Origin: an uncultured Pseudomonadales bacterium
GTDB lineage: Bacteria; Patescibacteriota; Microgenomatia; UBA1400; UBA1396
Assembly (NCBI GenBank): GCA_964511175.1
Contig: CAZEEI010000002.1
Span: forward strand, 2,063 to 66,062
DNA length: 64,000 bases
Direction of reading: 5' to 3'
A program made the position numbers and the translations under genes. Positions within the stretch are counted from its first letter, which is position 1, and each line of letters starts with the position of its first letter. Below the pieces are notes generated by a model. That model was not told where the DNA came from. It was given only the letters and a program-made list of their open reading frames with translations, and made no database searches. Below are positions 22,867-35,380 of the stretch, piece after piece.

Positions 22867-24059
22867 ACACACGGTATCGTTGGGGACTCGGTTTTTATTT
22901 TCTCACATTAGTGATTCTAGCCGCGTGGTCTTACGCTTTTACCGATCCTAACTTAATCATGTTGAACCAGCCCTGGTTTGTCGTCTGGCAAAATTATTGG
23001 TGGCAGATAGCGCAAAATGCAGGGTTATTAGGAGGTTTGTTTATCAGTTTAACTACGGTGATGGTGATTGGTTATCTCAATTTATGGCGAGCGCTGTCGG
23101 TTAAATCGATAAGACTAAAAAAGTTTATTCCTTGGTTAACGGCAATTGCAGTGATTTTGTCACTAGGTTATAACGCCTATTCGCACGATATTTTCAATTA
23201 CCTGTTTAACGCCAAAATGATTTGGCAGTACGGTGCCAACCCGCATGTGCAAGTGGCCCTTGATTTTGTCGGCGATCCCTGGCTGCGCTTTATGCATAAC
23301 GTGCACACACCAGCTCCCTACGGCTACGGTTGGACGGTTCTTTCGCTAGTTCCTTATGCCTTTAGTTTTGGTAAATTTCTTACTGCTTACCTAGCCATGA
23401 AGGGGTGGATGATAGTGGGCTGGGTCTGGTTATTGGGGGCAGTTTGGCAGTTAATCCGGTCGGATAAGTTGGATCATCCCGCTCAACGCTGGTTAGGGCT
23501 AGCCTTCCACCCTTTAGTGTTGATCGAAACCCTGCTTAATGGACACAACGATGTTTGGATGATGGCGCCAGCCTTGACGGCTTGGTACTTACTCAGTCAT
23601 CGCCGCCGCAGTGCTACTACTATTGGTTTAGTGATTGGTTTGATGGTGTTTTCGATTTCAATTAAGTTTGTGACAATCTTGTTGTTGCCGCTAATGTTAC
23701 TAACGTGGTGGCCGCTAAAATTGAGACCACAATTAGATTGGATAAGAGATCACTGGGCCGAAATAGCGACCTTATTATTAATATTACCGTTGTTAACGTC
23801 CCGCTCCCAACAATTTCATCCTTGGTATTTAATTTGGGCCCTATCCTTCCTGCCATTAACCCGGTGGCGCTGGTTGGAGTGGGGGGTAAGCGGATTATCG
23901 CTGAGTGCGTTGTATCGTTACTATCCGTGGATTCTTAATGATTTTCAATATACTGATCAAGTCGAGTTGCAAATGCGCCTGATCACCTGGAGCGGTTTAC
24001 TGTTGGGATTAGGCGGGTGGTTAATGGTTCGCTGGCAATATAATCGGAAACATCATTAG
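22863..24059 (+). CDS. Polytopic membrane protein (possible GT-C/DUF2029-like mannosyltransferase)
   Basis: At least 10 predicted TM helices with conserved loops (HNDVWMMAPAL, HPWYL). The ATG at 22863 overlaps the upstream stop (ATGA). Last gene of the plus-strand operon. Confidence 0.45.
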   Translation: MNTRYRWGLGFYFLTLVILAAWSYAFTDPNLIMLNQPWFVVWQNYWWQIAQNAGLLGGLFISLTTVMVIGYLNLWRALSVKSIRLKKFIPWLTAIAVILSLGYNAYSHDIFNYLFNAKMIWQYGANPHVQVALDFVGDPWLRFMHNVHTPAPYGYGWTVLSLVPYAFSFGKFLTAYLAMKGWMIVGWVWLLGAVWQLIRSDKLDHPAQRWLGLAFHPLVLIETLLNGHNDVWMMAPALTAWYLLSHRRRSATTIGLVIGLMVFSISIKFVTILLLPLMLLTWWPLKLRPQLDWIRDHWAEIATLLLILPLLTSRSQQFHPWYLIWALSFLPLTRWRWLEWGVSGLSLSALYRYYPWILNDFQYTDQVELQMRLITWSGLLLGLGGWLMVRWQYNRKHH

Positions 24060-24061
24060 TT

Positions 24062-25552
24062 TTAGTTGTTTTGCCGTACCCTGCTTAGTTCTCTAAAGAA
24101 AAAGGCATCTCCCTTGCCGGTATATTGGTATTGCAGAGTGTTGCCCTCAAGTGTGTTACCAATCCACAGCGCTCGCTGAGTCGACTTTGGATTAAACAGA
24201 ACACCGTTGATTGCATCGGCATATTCAGTCATATTCGACAAAGCACCTAATATTAAACACGTTACCAATGCCTTTTTTATATTTCCTTTGCTTGTTTTAA
24301 GAGCCAAGGGTACATAGGTAAAAATAACCAACCAAGGAATTACTGATACTCTCATTGAAAAATCATGACATAACCCATAATCCACCAATAAAATTATGGT
24401 CATAGTTACCGCAGCCGTAAGCATTAGTCCCTGATCAATCCTGCTCTGTATTGCTCCAGTTTTCCACACTACAGACCACAAGAGTCCAAATTCCAAAGTA
24501 ATAAACAATAGTAAAATCGCCCAATTATTTAAAAGCCAAGTTAAACCTCTAATCTTAGCTGCTGCTCCACCAGCAGTGCCAAGATCCATTGATAAAAAAT
24601 AGAGACTAGTTGGTATGGCAATCACTATTAAAGATAAAATATTGGGGACGCTAATAAATTTTTTAATCCGGAATTTTTCTAAAAGCAAAAGGCAGATAGC
24701 AAATGGCAAGAGACCGATAGCCACTAAAGGGGACCACAACAATAGCAGACAAGCGAATAAAATAAGTAATTTATAATTTGATTTTTTTAAAAGCGTTAGC
24801 GTCTCAAAGGTGGCAATCCAAGCGCAAATATAATGTTGAATCGACCAACGCCAAGCTGTTCCCATGGAATGATAATTGGCAATATGTTGTCCATTGCGTC
24901 CAGTTATATTAGCCCAATGGTCTAGGTGGACTAGAGGATCGGGCCAAGTACCCGTTGTTAGAACATAGCCGATAACGTCCATGCCGGCAAAAAACAAAAA
25001 TAAAAGAAAAGTTTTTAGGGTTGGCTTGCCGGTTGCCACCAACATCCAGAACACGCCCAAGCCAGCACCTAAGAAAGACCAGACAAGTAAAGTTGTTTCA
25101 CAAGCGCGGTAACTGCCTAAAACCTTACCAATTAGTGCAGCTGGTAAATAAAAGGCTACATAGTAATTTAATACCTGGTTTGAACCATCACTAGTCACCG
25201 CATTGTAAGAAACAGGCCAACTTTTCTCATACAAATCATGCAATACGGCATTATTTTTTGCCCAATCTCCTGTCTGTTTTCCGATAACCGCCCCAACCCC
25301 TGTCGCTAGCAATAAAGCTAAGATAATTCCCAGGATAATGAAAACTGTTGATTTTTCCAACGCGAATTTTTTAAAAGGAATTTTTTGGATTTCCTTACCA
25401 GTAAAATATAAAATTACGGTTAATCCTAGAGATAAGATTAGCGGGTAAATATTTTTTAGATTACCCAAATAAAAAATAAAATAAGGGATAATTAAATATA
25501 AAATCCCCAAAAACATCATTAATCGTTGTGATTTTTCTCCAAATACAAACAC
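24062..25552 (-). CDS. Polytopic membrane protein (O-antigen polymerase/ligase- or GT-C-like), AT-rich
   Basis: 496 aa with more than 10 TM helices and a visibly lower GC than its neighbours. Last gene of the minus-strand glycan operon. Confidence 0.45.
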   Translation of the reverse strand: MFVFGEKSQRLMMFLGILYLIIPYFIFYLGNLKNIYPLILSLGLTVILYFTGKEIQKIPFKKFALEKSTVFIILGIILALLLATGVGAVIGKQTGDWAKNNAVLHDLYEKSWPVSYNAVTSDGSNQVLNYYVAFYLPAALIGKVLGSYRACETTLLVWSFLGAGLGVFWMLVATGKPTLKTFLLFLFFAGMDVIGYVLTTGTWPDPLVHLDHWANITGRNGQHIANYHSMGTAWRWSIQHYICAWIATFETLTLLKKSNYKLLILFACLLLLWSPLVAIGLLPFAICLLLLEKFRIKKFISVPNILSLIVIAIPTSLYFLSMDLGTAGGAAAKIRGLTWLLNNWAILLLFITLEFGLLWSVVWKTGAIQSRIDQGLMLTAAVTMTIILLVDYGLCHDFSMRVSVIPWLVIFTYVPLALKTSKGNIKKALVTCLILGALSNMTEYADAINGVLFNPKSTQRALWIGNTLEGNTLQYQYTGKGDAFFFRELSRVRQNN

Positions 25553-25555
25553 TTC

Positions 25556-26506
25556 TTAATCCTCAAAATTAATTCTTTTCTCTTCAATAACCAATGGTCG
25601 CCTAATTACTCTGGAATTAATACTCAAAACATATTCTCCTAAGATGCCAATAAAAAATAATTGGACAGCGCCAAGAAAATAAACACCAATAGTAGCCGCT
25701 GCTGCCCCGGCATCAAAACTATACCAGTTAGTTATTTTTTGAAACAAAGTTATGGCGGCCACCATCAAACAGAGTAGGGATAGTCCAGCTCCGACAAAAG
25801 TGGCTATTCGCAGCAGCGTTTTGGAATAAGAAGTGATCCCCAACATTGCAAAATCATACATTTTCAAAAAATTAGCATAAGACTTACCATGTTCACGTTT
25901 ATTCTGTGTGTAATAAATTTTTTCAATACCGAATCCCATTTCCGCAATAATCCCGCGCAAATACGGAACAGGATCATCAATTTGCCGCAGAACTTCAATA
26001 AAAGATTTATCCAACAATTCATAATCCGTAAAATGCGCAATTTGTTCGACTTCGGACATGGTTTTCATTAGCTGGTAATAAATGCTTCGCACGAAATATA
26101 CCAGACCATTTTCTTTACTCTTATTTTTAATGCCAATGATAACTTTGCCTCCACTCTCCCACTTTTTTATAAACCGGGGAATGAGATTAGGTGGATTTTG
26201 CAAATCAGCATGAATGAGCATAATTGCATCACCGGTCATCTGGGTCAATCCATAAAAATGGGAACGAGAGTAACCAAAATTCCGGGCATTGAAGATGGCT
26301 TTTACCCGCCTATCTCGCGCGCACAATGTCTCAATTAATGTTCGAGTTTTATCACTAGAGCAATTATCAATAAAAACAAGTTCAAAATTATATTGAGGCA
26401 ATTTATTTTCCATCACTTTTATAACTTCGGTATAAACCAGTGAAACATTTCCCTCTTCATTATAAGTAGGAACAAGTATGGAAATAACTTTCTTTTTTTT
26501 CTTCAT
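25556..26506 (-). CDS. GT2 glycosyltransferase with C-terminal TM helices
   Basis: ISILVPTYNEEGNV...FIDNCSSDKT...HADLQNPP motifs, and two C-terminal TM helices as in polyprenol-phosphate GT2 enzymes. Confidence 0.8.
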   Translation of the reverse strand: MKKKKKVISILVPTYNEEGNVSLVYTEVIKVMENKLPQYNFELVFIDNCSSDKTRTLIETLCARDRRVKAIFNARNFGYSRSHFYGLTQMTGDAIMLIHADLQNPPNLIPRFIKKWESGGKVIIGIKNKSKENGLVYFVRSIYYQLMKTMSEVEQIAHFTDYELLDKSFIEVLRQIDDPVPYLRGIIAEMGFGIEKIYYTQNKREHGKSYANFLKMYDFAMLGITSYSKTLLRIATFVGAGLSLLCLMVAAITLFQKITNWYSFDAGAAAATIGVYFLGAVQLFFIGILGEYVLSINSRVIRRPLVIEEKRINFED

Positions 26507-26512
26507 TCTTTA

Positions 26513-27682
26513 TTAATCTATTTTTACTACTTTAGCAATTTCTAAGGCTCGTTCCAGTGCTTGGTCCATATTATAATACTTAAAGTCAGCCAAACGACCA
26601 CAATAATATAGATTAGGAATCTTGTCCGCTTGCTTTTGATAAGCTGCGTGCTGTTTTTGGCTTTCTTCAGTCAATAACGGATAATATGGTTCAAGTTTTT
26701 TGCCCTTTTTGTATGGTAGGGGATATTCCACTGCATAGGTAGAACCTTTTACTGCCTGTTTAGGTAATTTTTTATATTCGGTAATACGCGTATAACCCTT
26801 GGCTTGTGGATAAGCTACCACCGGCGCCGCTTGTATACTTTTCTTATTCTCATACTTCCATTCAAAACGTAGGGACCGATAAGGAAGACTGCCATGGTTA
26901 CAACCGAATAATTCATCCAGAGCGCCGGTATAGATTACGGGGCAGCTAATAGGTTGTTCTTCTCGCAATAACGTTTTTCCATCGGTAGATACGGATAGAT
27001 ATTTTAAAGCTTCTTTGCCAAGATTTAAGGTGATATTGGGATGATCTAATATTTTTTCGAAAAATGCAGTGTAGCTGACTTTTGGCATCATTTGGTATTG
27101 GTCATCAAAATAACCAACATCATAAGAAAAGCGCAGCGGTACACGTTTTAATATACTAGGATCAATCATTTTGGGTGAAACACCCCATTGTTTGGCGGCG
27201 TACAAACTATAGTCTTTCGCAAAAAGAAATTGGGCATAACCTTGTATTAGTGGATCTTCATTTTCTAATACTTCCATCACTGTAGCAGTTTGGCGCTTAC
27301 CGAATGCGGCTTGAATATGCGCCTTTAATTCCATTGCCTGTTCTAGTGGATAAAAATCATCAATAGTTTGAAAGTTAAATGGTGTTGGTGTGGTAATGCC
27401 ATCGATCTCTGCCAGGCAAATTAATTGATAATCTTGCCAGGCAATAAATCGTTTTAAGTAATTACATAGTGATCTGTTATTGGTATGAAATACGTGCGGG
27501 CCATATTTTTGCACCAAAATACCATGCTGATCAACATAGTCATACATATTGCCGCCAATGTGATTGCGGCGTTCCCAAACAACTACTTTTTTTCCTCTTT
27601 CCTCAGCCAGGTAACGCGCTATGACACTACCGACCAAACCGGAGCCAACAATAATTGCCTCAGAGTTATCCTTAATCAGCAC
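26513..27682 (-). CDS. glf: UDP-galactopyranose mutase
   Basis: FAD Rossmann IIVGSGLVGSVIARYLAEE plus the Glf-specific KVVVWERRNHIGGNMYD...GILVQKYGPHVFHTNN. Confidence 0.9.
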   Translation of the reverse strand: MLIKDNSEAIIVGSGLVGSVIARYLAEERGKKVVVWERRNHIGGNMYDYVDQHGILVQKYGPHVFHTNNRSLCNYLKRFIAWQDYQLICLAEIDGITTPTPFNFQTIDDFYPLEQAMELKAHIQAAFGKRQTATVMEVLENEDPLIQGYAQFLFAKDYSLYAAKQWGVSPKMIDPSILKRVPLRFSYDVGYFDDQYQMMPKVSYTAFFEKILDHPNITLNLGKEALKYLSVSTDGKTLLREEQPISCPVIYTGALDELFGCNHGSLPYRSLRFEWKYENKKSIQAAPVVAYPQAKGYTRITEYKKLPKQAVKGSTYAVEYPLPYKKGKKLEPYYPLLTEESQKQHAAYQKQADKIPNLYYCGRLADFKYYNMDQALERALEIAKVVKID

Positions 27683-28602
27683 GATGATTTTTCCAATTTT
27701 ACTCTATTGATCACATCTCTGATGCCGTTTTCAAAAGATATTTTTGGCACAAAACCAGTATCTTCTTGTAACGCTGAAAGATCGATACAAGAACTAGGTA
27801 GTCGGTTGTCAACATAAGGAATTTCACCAATACCAAGCGGCAACATGGGGTTAATTAAATCCTTAATGATGCCAATATATTGGTTCAATGGTTGATTGTC
27901 CCCGTGCCCAATGGCATAAAAACGCCCAGTTTTTCCTTTTTTACCTATTAGATATAACGCCTCAATCAAGTCGTCGATGTGGATATAATCCCATTTTTGT
28001 TCCAGTTTGGTAAGTGATGGTTTTTTACCATCTAAAAGTTGATCAATAGTGTAAAAAATAACATTATTATCACGTCTGTCAGCGGCATAAATACCAGTTG
28101 TCACAACGTAGATAAAACCTACTTTTAATTGTCTAGCCAACTCTTCACAGAGGAATCTAGTAGCAATTTTGACGCTACCGTAAGCATTCTGCGCTGAAGG
28201 TATAGCGTTTTCATTAATTGGTTTACTGTAGTACAGATATTCACTGGTTGATCCAGGCAAAATAAATTTTTTAACGCCTGCCATAGCTGCGAAGCGGATA
28301 CAGTTTAAACTCAGTGGAATATTTTCTATCTGCAAATCAAAATCATTGCGACAATCTGGATTCACACCCTGCCATGCTAAGTGATACATCACGTCCGCTT
28401 TTTTAGGAAAATCCGCCAAATGTGACTGTAATTCACTTAATTCGCATTCAACGATATGGATTTTCGGCAAATCAGCCAGACGGTTTTTAGAAGTATTATG
28501 GGAAGTAACATTGGCCCATACTTCGACACCCGCATCAACCAACTGATGTATTAAATGAGAGCCAATAAACCCGCTTGCACCCGTAATAATTGCGCGCTTC
28601 AT
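27676..28602 (-). CDS. NAD-dependent epimerase/dehydratase (possibly CDP-6-deoxyhexose epimerase/reductase)
   Basis: MKRAIITGASGFIGSHLIHQL Rossmann motif and a YxxxK (YGSVK). It lies next to the CDP-glucose 4,6-dehydratase gene. Confidence 0.75.
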   Translation of the reverse strand: MKRAIITGASGFIGSHLIHQLVDAGVEVWANVTSHNTSKNRLADLPKIHIVECELSELQSHLADFPKKADVMYHLAWQGVNPDCRNDFDLQIENIPLSLNCIRFAAMAGVKKFILPGSTSEYLYYSKPINENAIPSAQNAYGSVKIATRFLCEELARQLKVGFIYVVTTGIYAADRRDNNVIFYTIDQLLDGKKPSLTKLEQKWDYIHIDDLIEALYLIGKKGKTGRFYAIGHGDNQPLNQYIGIIKDLINPMLPLGIGEIPYVDNRLPSSCIDLSALQEDTGFVPKISFENGIRDVINRVKLEKSSC

Positions 28603-28605
28603 ATT

Positions 28606-29688
28606 TTACTTCAGATACTCCTCAATTTGTTGATTCGTCAATTGAATAATCTCTCCAGAAGGGTATTTATTCAGCAATGCTTTGCTCCACTCCACCGTTT
28701 TATCAACGGCCTGATCAATATGCCAAAGGGGATGCCAATTAAAAACTTTTTTTATCCGGGAACAATCCAATTTTAGGAAATTTGCCTCATGTGGAGCATT
28801 TTTTATTGATATATTTTTCCACTTTGCTGGTTTACCCCAATGAGCGCAAAAAAGATCAACTAATTCTTTGGTAGAGATACAATCTTCATCGTCAGGACCG
28901 ATGTTGTAATTTTCCTCATACACTCCTGGTTGTCCGCATTGTCGACTTGCTATTAACAAATAAGCACAGATTGGTTCCAGAACATGCTGCCAGGGCCGCG
29001 TTGAGTTGGGATTACGCACAATGATAGTTTTTTTTCTTTCCATAGCCCGAACACAATCGGGAATAAGGCGATCCGAGGAAAAATCGCCGCCACCAATCAC
29101 ATTTCCTGCCCGACACGTGGCGATTGCCACTTTACTATCGGCAAAGAAAGCATGGCGGTAAGAAGATGTTACCAATTCGGAACATGATTTGGAATTAGAA
29201 TATGGATCATAACCATTTAAACGATCAGTTTCGCGGTATCCCCACGCCCACTCTTCATTCAAGTAGACTTTATCGGTGGTGACATTAATTACTGACTGAA
29301 CAGAAGGGCAGGAGCGTACAGCTTCTAATAGGTTGACTGTACCCATCACGTTAGTGGCATAAGTCTGTACTGGATCACGATATGATTCACGTACGAGCGG
29401 CTGAGCTGCCATATGGATAACAATTTCGGGTTTAGCTCTGCGCATTGTTTGGCGCAAGTGCTCTAAGTCCCTGATGTCACCGATTACCGAGTTTATTTGT
29501 TTAGTCAAACCAAGCATGGTAAAAAGATTAGGATTAGTTGGCGGTTTTAGTGCATACCCAGTGACTTTGCCTCCAAGACCAACGAGAACCTGGCACATCC
29601 AACTCCCTTTAAAACCGGTATGCCCCGTAATAAATATTCTTTTTCCTTGGTAAGTTGAGAGATCCATTATTTGGTCCACTTCATCCAT
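28606..29688 (-). CDS. rfbG: CDP-glucose 4,6-dehydratase
   Basis: GKRIFITGHTGFKGSWMCQVL is the characteristic RfbG/DdhB N-terminus; 360 aa. Confidence 0.88.
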   Translation of the reverse strand: MDEVDQIMDLSTYQGKRIFITGHTGFKGSWMCQVLVGLGGKVTGYALKPPTNPNLFTMLGLTKQINSVIGDIRDLEHLRQTMRRAKPEIVIHMAAQPLVRESYRDPVQTYATNVMGTVNLLEAVRSCPSVQSVINVTTDKVYLNEEWAWGYRETDRLNGYDPYSNSKSCSELVTSSYRHAFFADSKVAIATCRAGNVIGGGDFSSDRLIPDCVRAMERKKTIIVRNPNSTRPWQHVLEPICAYLLIASRQCGQPGVYEENYNIGPDDEDCISTKELVDLFCAHWGKPAKWKNISIKNAPHEANFLKLDCSRIKKVFNWHPLWHIDQAVDKTVEWSKALLNKYPSGEIIQLTNQQIEEYLK

Positions 29689-30446
29689 GGCGCTTCACCT
29701 TTTTGGATCAGCTCGTCCAAATATAACTTGTCCCTCAGAGTATCCATGCACTGCCAAAAACCGCTATGTTTATAAGCCATTAATTGGCCTTCCTGCGATA
29801 GACGCTCTAGTGGCGTTTTTTCTAAAACAGTATCATCCGCTTCGATATAATCAAATATTTGTGGTTCCAATACCATAAATCCACCATTAATCCAGCCGCC
29901 GTCCTCTTTTCTCTTTTCCGCAAAGCTATGAATCCGAGAATGCTCTGCTATATCCAACATGCCAAAGCGGCCACCCGGTTGTATAGCCGTTAATGTGGCT
30001 AACCTTTTATTTTTTCGATGAAACGCTAACAAGTTTTTGATATTAAGATCGCTTATGCCATCACCGTAAGTCAACATAAAAGACTTATCGCCAATATAAT
30101 TTTGGATGCGTTTAACCCGCCCGCCTGTCATAGAGTTTAAGCCAGTATCCACAATCGTTATCTTCCAAGGTTCGGCAACATTGTTGTGTACGGTTATTTT
30201 GCCGCCCTGAGAAAAATCGAATGTAATGTCGGAGCGATGTAAATAGTAATCCGCAAAATACTCTTTAATGAAATGTTGTTTATATCCAGCGCAAATAATA
30301 AAATCGTTAAAACCATAATACGAATAAAGCTTCATGATATGCCACAATATGGGTTGATCACCAATTTCAATCATTGGTTTTGGTTTTAAGTGGCTCTCCT
30401 CAATAATGCGGGCACCAAAACCACCAGCTAAAATTACAACTTTCAT
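29667..30446 (-). CDS. rfbF: Glucose-1-phosphate cytidylyltransferase
   Basis: MKVVILAGGFGARIIEESHLKPKPMIEIGDQPILWHIMKLY matches RfbF/DdhA. The true start is MKVVILAGG (30446). Confidence 0.88.
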   Translation of the reverse strand: MKVVILAGGFGARIIEESHLKPKPMIEIGDQPILWHIMKLYSYYGFNDFIICAGYKQHFIKEYFADYYLHRSDITFDFSQGGKITVHNNVAEPWKITIVDTGLNSMTGGRVKRIQNYIGDKSFMLTYGDGISDLNIKNLLAFHRKNKRLATLTAIQPGGRFGMLDIAEHSRIHSFAEKRKEDGGWINGGFMVLEPQIFDYIEADDTVLEKTPLERLSQEGQLMAYKHSGFWQCMDTLRDKLYLDELIQKGEAPWMKWTK

Positions 30447-32885: not shown

Positions 32886-34424
32886 CTATTGTACCAAGAA
32901 ACGCCGGTAGAGAACCATATCCTCCGTGTTCTCTAGAACAAAATAATTTTGCTGCAGATAAGTCGCTAGCTCTGGTAGGGGGGATTCCTCCTTCATCACA
33001 ATAATCAGGGGCGGTTGGTTGTGTTCGATAGCCTGCAGGGTTTCAGCATAAGCCTGCAAATCTTTAATGTGGAAACTAACCGTAAACCGGCCAGTCGGTA
33101 TCCTTTGGGTAAGGGCGTAAAGCATAGGATTAGTTCCCCAGATGAACAGGCGATCCTCAGGCAGAGATCGGCTCGTAATTAAATCGGCTAAAAGCTGATT
33201 TTGGGTAGTAAGACGGTTGAAATCAGACCAATATTGTTCACGGTTGATTCGGCCAGTAGCGTAATACCAAAATCGATTGTAATAAGCCAACAGTGGCCAA
33301 GAGCGAAAGTTAAGTAAAAATAAAGCACTCAAGGTGATCAACCAAACCGCAACCACCAAACAGCGTTCGCCAAGTTTGGCTTTACGCTGGCTGAATAGAA
33401 TTATGGACAGCACTAGGGGTGGTGCCAGCTGCAGAAGGTAATGTGGGTAGGGTCGGTTAGATAAAAGAGCCGCAAAAAGGGTGGATAGCAACCAAAAAGC
33501 AGACCAAGCAGTGAGGTAGTTGATTTGACGCAGCTTAGTTAATCCGCTGGCCGCGGCAAAGATCACTAACAGAATGAGAGTTTTTCCCGGGAGGGAAAAA
33601 AGCCAGACCAAAATAGGCTGAGTAAAGGGTAAGCTCCAGTTCTGACTATAGTGTAGGTTGTACAGTAAACCGAATTGTAAATAATTGGCTAAAGTGCCAC
33701 GTCCCCAAAAGTAGAGTATAGAGGCTAAGATGGCGGTGATTACACCGGTACCGAAGATCATCATCGGTTGCAAGACTGTCCAGCGCCAACGTTTGGCTGT
33801 CATTAGTTCAAACCAAAACAGAGAAGCTAGGGCGCCAGCATCCAAAAGAGCCGGTACTTTAGTTAAGATACCTAAACCAGCTAGTACACCGGCGGTAAAT
33901 ACTAAATAAAGCCAACGGCGCGTCGGCTGGCGTTCTCTAGTTAATAACCAAAGGGAGGCGGTAATAAAGCCCAAAACAAACAGTTCGCCGTTGGGAACAT
34001 TACCCTCCAAAGCTGGCAAGCTGGTTAAAATAACAAACAGAGTTCCGGCTATTACCGCGGCGATTGGGGTTAATAGACGGCGCGCCGCATGATAGAAAAA
34101 CAAGCTGGCGGCGGCCATCCAGCCAATCAGCAAAAGGCGAAACCAGGTTTGATTAGGCACCATGGCTAACCAGTAAATAAGCGGTGTTTTATGGTCGACA
34201 ATATCAGCATACAAACGCAGACCATGGCGGAGCGCGTGGCCAATCGTCAAATAGATAGCTTCATCGCCATACCAGTAGGGTTCGGCCAGATTGGGTAAAC
34301 GCAGTAGAAATAACAGAACCAATAGGCACAGAGAAACTTCGTGGTGGTTGGCCCATTGCTTTAATTGATCGATCAACTTGCCTAAGCGATTCTGCCAAAC
34401 GGTAATCAAAGCCAGCTGGACCAT
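32886..34424 (-). CDS. GT-C fold membrane glycosyltransferase, ArnT/PMT-like
   Basis: YWYGDEAIYLTIGHALRHGLRLYADIVDHKTPLIYWL, i.e. the DE..Y first-loop motif of the PMT/ArnT family. 512 aa with more than 10 TM helices. Confidence 0.7.
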   Translation of the reverse strand: MVQLALITVWQNRLGKLIDQLKQWANHHEVSLCLLVLLFLLRLPNLAEPYWYGDEAIYLTIGHALRHGLRLYADIVDHKTPLIYWLAMVPNQTWFRLLLIGWMAAASLFFYHAARRLLTPIAAVIAGTLFVILTSLPALEGNVPNGELFVLGFITASLWLLTRERQPTRRWLYLVFTAGVLAGLGILTKVPALLDAGALASLFWFELMTAKRWRWTVLQPMMIFGTGVITAILASILYFWGRGTLANYLQFGLLYNLHYSQNWSLPFTQPILVWLFSLPGKTLILLVIFAAASGLTKLRQINYLTAWSAFWLLSTLFAALLSNRPYPHYLLQLAPPLVLSIILFSQRKAKLGERCLVVAVWLITLSALFLLNFRSWPLLAYYNRFWYYATGRINREQYWSDFNRLTTQNQLLADLITSRSLPEDRLFIWGTNPMLYALTQRIPTGRFTVSFHIKDLQAYAETLQAIEHNQPPLIIVMKEESPLPELATYLQQNYFVLENTEDMVLYRRFLVQ

Positions 34425-34439
34425 TATTCAAGCATAAAA

Positions 34440-34448
34440 TGGTATAAT
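34440..34448 (+). promoter_or_regulatory. Extended -10 promoter element (TGGTATAAT) for ssrA
   Basis: TGGTATAAT ends 14 nt upstream of the tmRNA 5' GGGG. Confidence 0.45.
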
Positions 34449-34462
34449 AGAGAGGTCAATGC

Positions 34463-34875
34463 GGGGATGCATCGACTTGACGGAAAATGCTCGTGAACAT
34501 CGGCGCGTCGGTTGGCCCACGTTAAGGGTCAAAACAACAAAATTGTCAATACTTTTGACAAAGCCGTTGCCAAGGTTAAGTCTACTTTTAACGAAGTAGC
34601 TATGGCCTTCTTCGGTACTGGTGAGCTCGCTACTTTAAAAATAGCGTAACACTGGTCATTCATTCGTTCGGTTTCAGATACGCCGGCGGATGGGTGAAAA
34701 CCTAGTATCTGTTCAAGACATAGCGGTTTGGCCGCCGCTGGTCCCACGTTTAAGGGTCAGCGCGAGACAGGGTTCGGTTAGTCTTTCCCTTCTCGTCCGA
34801 GCTAAGGCTAAATTACACGCGTAGATGATGTTGACTTGGTTTTTCGGACTCGGGTTCATTACCCGACATCTCCAC
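34463..34875 (+). ncRNA. ssrA: tmRNA (transfer-messenger RNA, SsrA)
   Basis: 5' GGGGATGCATCGACTTGACGG aligns with the canonical tmRNA 5' end (GGGGCUGAUUCUGGAUUCGACGGG). The 3' end TTTTTCGGACTCGGGTTCATTACCCGACATCTCCAC aligns with the canonical T-arm/acceptor (UUUCGGACGCGGGUUCAACUCCCGCCAGCUCCA). The acceptor stem GGGGATG/CATCTCC carries a G3:U70 pair, the alanine identity element. An internal tag reading frame ends ...GAGCTCGCTACTTTAAAAATAGCGTAA (stop at 34647-34649). CCA is not fully encoded. Confidence 0.85.
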
Positions 34876-34876
34876 T

Positions 34877-35380
34877 TTACGGCAAGCCGGCGGCCAGGTG
34901 CTGTCGGCTTTTTTGGAGTCGGTAACGAAAATCTGGATCACGCCAAAGTCGATGAATGGGAGGATCTCCCTGAACCAGGTTCCAGCAACTAACGGTGAAG
35001 TTACGTAATTCTTGATTAGATTGATAATAGGGTGCCGTTGCTTCTAAACCGAAAATAATTTGACAACGCAGGCCACTCACTACTTTTTGAATAAATTCGA
35101 TGGTGGGGTTAGTTTGCAGCGTTTCTAATCGTGAAATATCAGGTTGAGATAGACCGATTCTTTGAGCCAGTGCGGCTTGGGTTAAGCCTTGTCCGATTCG
35201 CTGCCGCCGGATTTGTTGAGTGATTTGCCACTTTAGATCGCTAAAACGGAGTTCATAGAGGATTTGTTCATATTCTTGTACCTGCTCAAGGCGATGGCCA
35301 TATCGCGAACGTGGTTTACCACGTAGAGGGGAAGTGTGTCGTTTTAACATAGCCCCATTTATAGCGTGAAAAACATACAC
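34877..35380 (-). CDS. XRE-family helix-turn-helix transcriptional regulator
   Basis: HTH_XRE-like segment LTQAALAQRIGLSQPDISRLETLQTNPTIEFIQKVVSGL. The stop lies 2 nt from the tmRNA 3' end. Confidence 0.55.
   Translation of the reverse strand: MYVFHAINGAMLKRHTSPLRGKPRSRYGHRLEQVQEYEQILYELRFSDLKWQITQQIRRQRIGQGLTQAALAQRIGLSQPDISRLETLQTNPTIEFIQKVVSGLRCQIIFGLEATAPYYQSNQELRNFTVSCWNLVQGDPPIHRLWRDPDFRYRLQKSRQHLAAGLP
34885..34914 (+). terminator. Putative intrinsic terminator downstream of ssrA
   Basis: AGCCGG...CCGGCT inverted repeat followed by TTTTTT. It sits on the strand opposite the last codons of the XRE gene. Confidence 0.35.

Follow-up and report, generated by a model that had tools for sequence, protein, structure and literature searches.

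A divergent one-piece tmRNA gene, very probably functional, from a Microgenomates-type member of the Patescibacteria

Introduction

Does a short intergenic region of an uncultured bacterium hold ssrA, the gene for transfer-messenger RNA (tmRNA), when ARAGORN reports none there and a list of open reading frames (ORFs) offers a protein on the opposite strand? The question is raised by a 64,000 nt stretch of contig CAZEEI010000002.1 (the window; coordinates refer to it throughout, position p of the tmRNA being 34462+p), in which a sequence-only reading had noticed a tmRNA-like sequence between two minus-strand ORFs (32886-34424 and 34877-35380). The gap, given as 410 nt in that reading, measures 452 nt. 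Among the top matches of a literature search, no paper tied tmRNA to Microgenomates, Parcubacteria, Saccharibacteria or related groups.

We conclude, from sequence comparison, that 34463-34874 on the plus strand is very probably a functional ssrA of the one-piece type from a Patescibacteria (Microgenomates-type) bacterium. The gene is genuine, intact and ordinary. It belongs to a known kind of RNA gene and its novelty is modest, being that of a divergent example with a few features of its lineage.

Identity of the gene

The gene under discussion is as follows.

34463-34874, plus strand: tmRNA gene (ssrA), one-piece, with a mature RNA of 412 nt before CCA addition

The check that the sequence-only reading had treated as decisive was an Infernal search with the Rfam model RF00023. 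The result is positive, with a match at 34463-34877 that spans the full model (positions 1-374) and scores 77.3 bits (E 2.7e-28) against a gathering threshold of 47. The termini, described earlier as resembling those of canonical tmRNA, lie where expected; the RNA begins with GGGGATGCATCGACTTGACGG, first base 34463, and ends with TTTTTCGGACTCGGGTTCATTACCCGACATCTCCA, last base 34874.

A scan with a T-arm pattern located only three loci in GTDB genomes and four in metagenomes. Since these came mostly from other lineages, close relatives were sought instead through the protein encoded beside the gene, a 512-aa membrane protein, and the DNA around eleven of its relatives was examined. In nine of these contigs RF00023 matches of 80-96 bits occupy the same syntenic place, directly upstream of, and divergent from, the orthologous gene for a membrane glycosyltransferase-like protein of 512-577 aa. 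The tmRNA gene has thus been kept in place across a clade in which the tmRNAs are only 52-85% identical to one another. The remaining two contigs (L014 and L015) break inside the tmRNA and retain only its first ~58 nt. In all, 14 full-length loci were collected, of which two are identical in sequence, leaving 13 distinct tmRNAs; L004 has a 3' tmRNA fragment only.

Secondary structure and covariation

Helices were mapped by hand on the window sequence and projected onto a MAFFT alignment of ten sequences, which underlies the comparative counts given below, and the pairs were counted independently.

34463-34469 (GGGGAUG) with 34867-34873 (CAUCUCC), plus strand: acceptor stem, 7 pairs
34481-34487 with 34840-34846, plus strand: helix 2a
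34496-34501 with 34827-34832, plus strand: helix 2c
34503-34508 with 34817-34822, plus strand: helix 2d
34509-34532, plus strand: pseudoknot 1 (PK1), S1 CG/CG (34509-10 with 34520-21) and S2 UUGGCCC/GGGUCAA (34512-18 with 34526-32)
34628-34646, plus strand: helix 5, CGCUA/UAGCG with a 9-nt loop, ending right before the stop codon of the tag and present in the minimum free energy fold of the mRNA-like domain
34657-34711, plus strand: PK2, P6 (34657-63 with 34690-96) and P7 CAGAUAC/GUAUCUG (34675-81 with 34705-11)
34721-34760, plus strand: PK3, P8 (34721-26 with 34735-40) and P9 UUGGCC/GGUCAG (34728-33 with 34755-60)
34763-34811, plus strand: PK4, P10 (34763-72 with 34787-95) and P11 UUAGUCUU/AAGGCUAA (34778-85 with 34804-11)
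34850-34866, plus strand: T-arm, 5-bp stem (34850-54 with 34862-66) and loop UUCAUUA, adjoining the acceptor 3' strand

The order of the parts is the canonical one for a one-piece molecule (tRNA-like domain, helix 2, PK1, mRNA-like domain, helix 5, PK2, PK3, PK4), and all mapped helices are intact in the window sequence itself. Over 14 helices, including the acceptor stem, helix 2, the four pseudoknots and the T-arm, 89.3% of the cells are paired, compared with 37-47% in a control in which the partners were slid by 1-3 columns. Changes on both sides are seen in 45 of 90 pairs. None of 500 shuffles reached the observed values on four of five whole-structure measures, and 4 of 500 did so on the fifth.

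Covariation is strong in helix 2a, PK1 S2, both stems of PK2, PK3 P9, both stems of PK4 and the T-stem. Helix 2 is paired in 92-100% of cells, with compensatory changes in every section, and the T-stem, which also covaries, in 98%. S2 of PK1 is paired in 94%, with double changes in four of its seven pairs, and S1 is invariant. For PK2 the values are 97% and 6/7 (P7) and 91% and 5/7 (P6); for P9 of PK3 they are 89% and 5/6. In PK3, P8 is well paired in the window and its two nearest relatives, L019 and L008, and is misaligned in distant sequences (63% of cells). P10 and P11 of PK4 are paired in 74 and 80% of cells, respectively, with double changes in six pairs of each. Helix 5 has a counterpart, UACGC/GCGUA, recognized by eye at the same place in relatives, and was left out of the formal count because its register differs among the sequences. 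The mRNA-like domain as a whole is unusually structured (-35.4 kcal/mol, z -3.6).

All seven acceptor pairs are invariant. They include the G:U third pair (G3:U70, the identity pair for alanine) to which attention had been drawn in the window and which is found in 10/10 sequences. The discriminator is A34874. The next bases being CTT, CCA would be added post-transcriptionally; likewise, CCA is not encoded by three of the window's four tRNA genes.

The mechanical ORF list contains the following entry at this locus.

34529-34747, minus strand: ORF of 72 aa with a GTG start, antisense to the tmRNA, not a gene

The idea that the region encodes this protein, its likeness to tmRNA being incidental, has in its favour a frame that begins with GTG and stays open for 72 codons. 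We find it scarcely credible in the face of the Rfam E value of 2.7e-28 and the extensive base-pair covariation. The ORF lies wholly inside structured RNA with covarying helices. It matches no Pfam family at E<=1, and antisense open frames in the relatives lie in different frames, have unrelated sequences and include no conserved counterpart. Public gene calls place equally unsupported short hypothetical ORFs over the tmRNAs of L009 (9535-9771), L019 (1839-2063 and 2204-2491) and L020 (253-342), an artefact of the same kind. The ORF had been dismissed as spurious from the letters alone, rightly on this evidence, and in the annotation a real RNA gene takes its place.

The element CCCACGTT(T)AAGGGTCA, reported earlier as occurring twice and presumed to lie in pseudoknot helices, is indeed present exactly twice in the 64 kb, at 34516-34531 and 34743-34759 (none expected from 100 shuffles). 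Both copies are in pseudoknots, PK1 and PK3. Copy 1 runs from the end of PK1 S2 through S1 and the loop to the 3' strand GGGUCA. Most of copy 2 forms the connecting loop of PK3, and the remainder is the 3' strand of P9. The two pseudoknots are alike in that an upstream UUGGCC pairs with GGUCA(A/G). The same resemblance is weaker in L008 and slight in L019; the similarity would therefore be partly inherited and sharpened in the window, either by conversion or by convergence.

Promoter and terminator

Two flanking elements that had been noted before are confirmed in place, and their functions are assigned from sequence.

34440-34448, plus strand: extended -10 element TGGTATAAT, 14 nt upstream of G1, putative promoter
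34884-34914, plus strand: intrinsic-terminator-like hairpin AAGCCGGCGGC/GCUGUCGGCUU followed by T6, putative terminator

TGnTATAAT is found upstream of the tmRNA in nine of ten loci, and TATAAT in all ten, at 14-17 nt from G1 in seven loci and 26-35 nt in three. A two-hexamer promoter scan gave no plus-strand -35/-10 pair and no good -35 element, so the predicted promoter is identified by the conserved extended -10 alone. The GC-rich hairpin at 34884-34910 has 11 bp (-18.2 kcal/mol, z -2.6) and overlaps the T6 run at 34909-34914; a terminator scan matches its inner part, and hairpin-T-run sequences are also seen downstream of several of the related tmRNAs. We note that a 9-nt stretch of PK3 (34729-34737, UGGCCGCCG) is complementary at every base to the 5' arm of this hairpin (34888-34896), which may be chance in GC-rich sequence.

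The tag and its resume codon

Where does the ribosome take up the tag, and how long is it?

34545-34649, plus strand: tag frame, resume codon GUC (34545-47), 34 sense codons, stop codon UAA (34647-49)
34541, plus strand: A79 of the tmRNA, four nt before the resume codon, an invariant column in two alignments and equivalent to E. coli A86

The frame encodes VNTFDKAVAKVKSTFNEVAMAFFGTGELATLKIA, 34 residues or 35 with the charged alanine, and closes with ...GAGCTCGCTACTTTAAAAATAGCGTAA and TAA (34647-34649), in agreement with the tag end ...ELATLKIA read previously. That reading had taken the first GCC (34563) as a conditional resume point; the evidence supports resumption at GUC (Val) 34545, six codons upstream, which would make the tag 34 codons long rather than 28.

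Several comparisons support this assignment. Rfam aligns the resume codon of the model, GCA, to GUC 34545 with high posterior probability, and in each of the relatives the codon aligned with it is in frame and begins with G (GCC, GUC or GGC). A34541 corresponds to the nucleotide A86 that is the main determinant of the frame in E. coli tmRNA (PMC2481249). The tag peptides of the ten sequences are homologous from residue 1, with the pattern [A/V]N.F[G/D]K.V.A.KS; they begin VNTFDKAVAKVKS... in the window, ANTFGKAVAAVKS... in L019, ANSFGKVMTAARS... in L009 and VKSFDNMIASIRT... in L011. In L008, the sole relative with an ARAGORN call, the called tag starts at the homologous codon. Pairwise differences within codons 1-6, upstream of the GCC, number 30, 38 and 69 at codon positions 1, 2 and 3, and this third-position excess indicates that these codons behave as coding sequence.

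A tmRNA that resumes instead at GCC 34563, with the 28-codon tag AVAKVKSTFNEVAMAFFGTGELATLKIA, would have the commonest kind of resume codon, GCN for alanine (PMC1168896), in the same frame. We consider it very unlikely. The 18 nt upstream are kept as codons, with the 30/38/69 distribution and the peptide motif N.F[GD]K; the invariant A stands four nt before GUC and not before GCC; both Rfam and the alignment to relatives give 34545; and no upstream signal is conserved among the relatives ahead of the codon that corresponds to GCC 34563.

With resumption at GUC 34545, the tag is at the top of the published range of 8-35 residues (PMC8012679) and among the longest degradation tags known. The tags of the relatives have 25-30 codons and finish with either ...P.YA[LIV]A or ...PAFA; that of the window has four extra residues and a remodelled end. 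The helical hydrophobic moment of the N-terminal 18 residues is high in most tags, and in six of ten it is matched by no more than 1% of shuffles; judged from these sequences, the N-terminal part looks like an amphipathic helix. In this clade tags reach the upper limit of known length and have an N-terminal part that is conserved and amphipathic-looking.

Two further features lie within the tag ORF. Firstly, there is an internal repeat with a period of 11 codons, TACTTTTGACAAAG (34550-34563) and TACTTTTAACGAAG (34583-34596), the copies of which encode NTFDKA and STFNEV. Secondly, a second hairpin is formed by CUACUUU/GAAGUAG at 34582-34599. It has counterparts in L009 and L018 (CUUCG/CGAAG) and in L019 (CCUC/GAGG), and the nine nucleotides concerned are missing from L008 and L013.

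Detection by ARAGORN and integrity of the gene

A number of observations weigh against a functional tmRNA. ARAGORN finds four tRNAs but no tmRNA in the window, either by default or with relaxed settings (-ps to 60). The Rfam score is the lowest of the whole tmRNA set. The tag finishes with ...LKIA, unlike the ...Y-A-[LIV]-A of the relatives, T-loop position 58 is U in the window (only one of the ten sequences has A there) and the D-loop analogue (34470-34480) has one invariant G rather than GG. Finally, smpB was not found in the 64-kb window by tblastn with E. coli SmpB as the query (best E 1.1).

The failure of ARAGORN, the first of the checks that had been proposed for this locus, reflects a limit of the program and is not evidence against the gene. 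Repairs of the T-loop, CCA, 5' end, resume codon, tag end and tag length, singly or combined, did not rescue the call. Chimeras were then made with E. coli ssrA, the sequence of which was validated by ARAGORN returning ANDENYALAA. The window tmRNA with only its tag segment swapped for that of E. coli is found by ARAGORN; the T-arm, acceptor and 5' domain of the window are thus acceptable to the program. Further chimeras revealed two independent causes of the miss. One is the sequence of the resume region, which does not resemble the consensus and where ARAGORN needs something like the first four codons of E. coli. The other is tag length; a test tag of 32 codons was reported and one of 34 was not. 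Among the 13 distinct tmRNAs only one, that of L008, is called. It follows that pipelines relying on ARAGORN will omit ssrA from many Patescibacteria genomes and may call false ORFs over it.

The low Rfam score and the atypical tag end and T-loop could also be read as signs of decay, as could the XRE-type gene that, on comparison with L008 and L019, appears to have been inserted beside the 3' end. The sequence would then be a non-functional copy, a pseudogene or a remnant of a mobile element, with a working ssrA elsewhere in the genome. This we judge highly improbable. The gene occupies the slot that holds the only tmRNA seen in the nine relatives, the window sequence preserves every helix, and G3:U70, the -4 A, a frame that is open up to its stop codon, promoter and terminator are all present. 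A second copy of the tmRNA 3' end was looked for in the 64-kb window and none was found, which also leaves an integrated island at the tmRNA 3' end unsupported; that idea was dropped. We therefore retain the interpretation of an intact, working gene.

The resume-codon hairpin and the elbow

Two structural features set the clade apart. The first is a hairpin at the start of the tag.

34544-34560, plus strand: 'helix m' hairpin over the resume codon, UGUCAA/UUGACA (34544-49 with 34555-60)

The hairpin has an energy of -6.4 kcal/mol (z -4.4), and 87% of its cells are paired. Covariation links the second base of the resume codon to the second base of codon 5, the pair being CG in six sequences, UA in two and GC in one. 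At the level of codons the six have GCC..GGC, the window and L011 have GUC..GAC, and L017 has the G:C combination. Since the window groups with L019 and L008, both with GCC..GGC, and L011 branches elsewhere, the double change arose twice. Burks et al. (2005) described helix m as a small hairpin that includes the resume codon, on the strength of an energy calculation only, and called it weakly supported (PMC1168896). The present hairpin is like theirs in including the resume codon and in that reading of the tag would require it to melt first; here, however, there is a stem of 5-7 bp with three pair types at one pair and a double change in two branches. The clade thus lends comparative support to a resume-codon hairpin so far predicted by energy calculation only.

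The second feature concerns the T-arm, in which a possible sixth pair, U34855:A34861 (54:60), covaries across the ten sequences (GC in five, UA in two, UG in two and CA in one). The window's own tRNAs are normal, with canonical T-loops. A potential sixth T-stem pair has been noted in helix 12 of Dehalococcoides ethenogenes tmRNA, the T-loop being otherwise called highly conserved (PMC1168896). The likeness is restricted to that pair, which here covaries across a clade (GC, UA, UG) and accompanies a loop that usually has no A58.

Might these features, with the long tag, jointly define a distinct structural subclass of tmRNA in Microgenomates-type Patescibacteria? We regard this as doubtful, if worth stating. 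In such a subclass the resume codon may be held in a selected helix m with real covariation. The tag, of 25-35 residues, may have an N-terminal amphipathic helix built on the 11-codon repeat. The elbow may be remodelled, with a six-pair T-stem, a five-base loop that has no T54-A58 pair and a D-loop that has no GG. If the subclass were real, it would imply altered frame selection, altered contacts with SmpB and at the elbow, and possibly a different route of proteolysis, for example by a membrane protease. Annotation that relies on ARAGORN would then also be missing tmRNAs throughout the lineage.

Comparison with known systems and proposed function

The interpretation that we favour, of an ordinary if divergent tmRNA, agrees with the many points shared with E. 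coli SsrA and RF00023. These are a tRNA-like domain with G3:U70 and discriminator A, the order of helix 2, PK1, mRNA-like domain, helix 5 and PK2-PK4, an A four nt before a resume codon that starts with G, and a tag that ends in a hydrophobic residue and alanine. The window differs from E. coli in its tag of 34 codons rather than 10, in resuming at GUC (Val) rather than GCA, in the T-loop UUCAUUA, which has no A58 and a possible sixth stem pair, in the shorter D-loop analogue with a single G, and in not encoding CCA. The Helicobacter pylori tag is much shorter than 34 codons. There is no similarity of tag sequence between the two and they belong to different phyla. Shared with H. pylori SsrA are resumption at a valine codon (GUA in H. 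pylori, GUC in the window) and a lysine close to the C-terminus of the tag, a place taken by leucine or valine in most species (PMC2862035).

From the established pathway of trans-translation we infer how the gene may act. Transcription would start from the extended -10 element at 34440 and terminate at the hairpin-T6 sequence (34884-34914). RNase P would cut a short leader before G1, the 3' end would be trimmed to A34874 and CCA would be added. AlaRS would then charge the tmRNA with alanine, and SmpB and EF-Tu would bring it to ribosomes stalled on broken mRNAs, where the nascent chain would move to the alanine. The resume-codon hairpin would melt and the ribosome would read the 34 codons and terminate. 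The released protein would bear A-VNTFDKAVAKVKSTFNEVAMAFFGTGELATLKIA, the hydrophobic, alanine-terminated end of which would be expected to send it to a protease. The picture of trans-translation is unchanged by this gene; what is added is a well characterized divergent example from an uncultured phylum, with lineage features that are mildly interesting to the tmRNA specialist.

Genomic neighbourhood and related loci

Besides the 512-aa membrane protein, which has no Pfam family, the genes around the tmRNA encode a YfhO-family protein, glycosyltransferases of families GT2 and GT4 and a UbiA prenyltransferase. It is in assemblies of Patescibacteria, Pacebacteria and Woesebacteria that the 512-aa protein has its closest relatives; an exact-protein search with the window's own flanking protein gave no record. 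Between the 3' end of the tmRNA and the YfhO gene lies the minus-strand ORF 34877-35380, of the XRE/HTH_3 family (Pfam E 1e-10). Its stop codon lies at a distance of 3 nt from the discriminator of the tmRNA, and the tmRNA terminator is overlapped on the opposite strand by the final ~12 codons of the ORF. In L008 and L019 the YfhO gene adjoins the tmRNA directly, and the XRE/HTH_3 ORF of the window therefore looks like an insertion.

The two truncated contigs, L014 (1-423) and L015 (1-400), come from the same metagenome and both stop at the same point of the tmRNA, right after PK1, which suggests that strain variation in the tag region broke the assembly.

Some contigs labelled as Gammaproteobacteria or Pseudomonadales (L001, L005, L006 and the identical pair L003 and L007) carry tmRNAs that ARAGORN misses in every case. 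These also have the T-loop UUCAUUA, a hairpin at the resume codon in each and tags of 30-35 codons (ANIISEEDEQALLALALSRRQARLAFAYQA and similar; VTDTVQSAKNWVADMLDKSMPQVAPAYASANVLYA).

Elsewhere in the window, the region 24000-30000 has a G+C content of 0.38-0.42, compared with about 0.47 for the remainder. It spans a block of minus-strand genes and may be acquired DNA.

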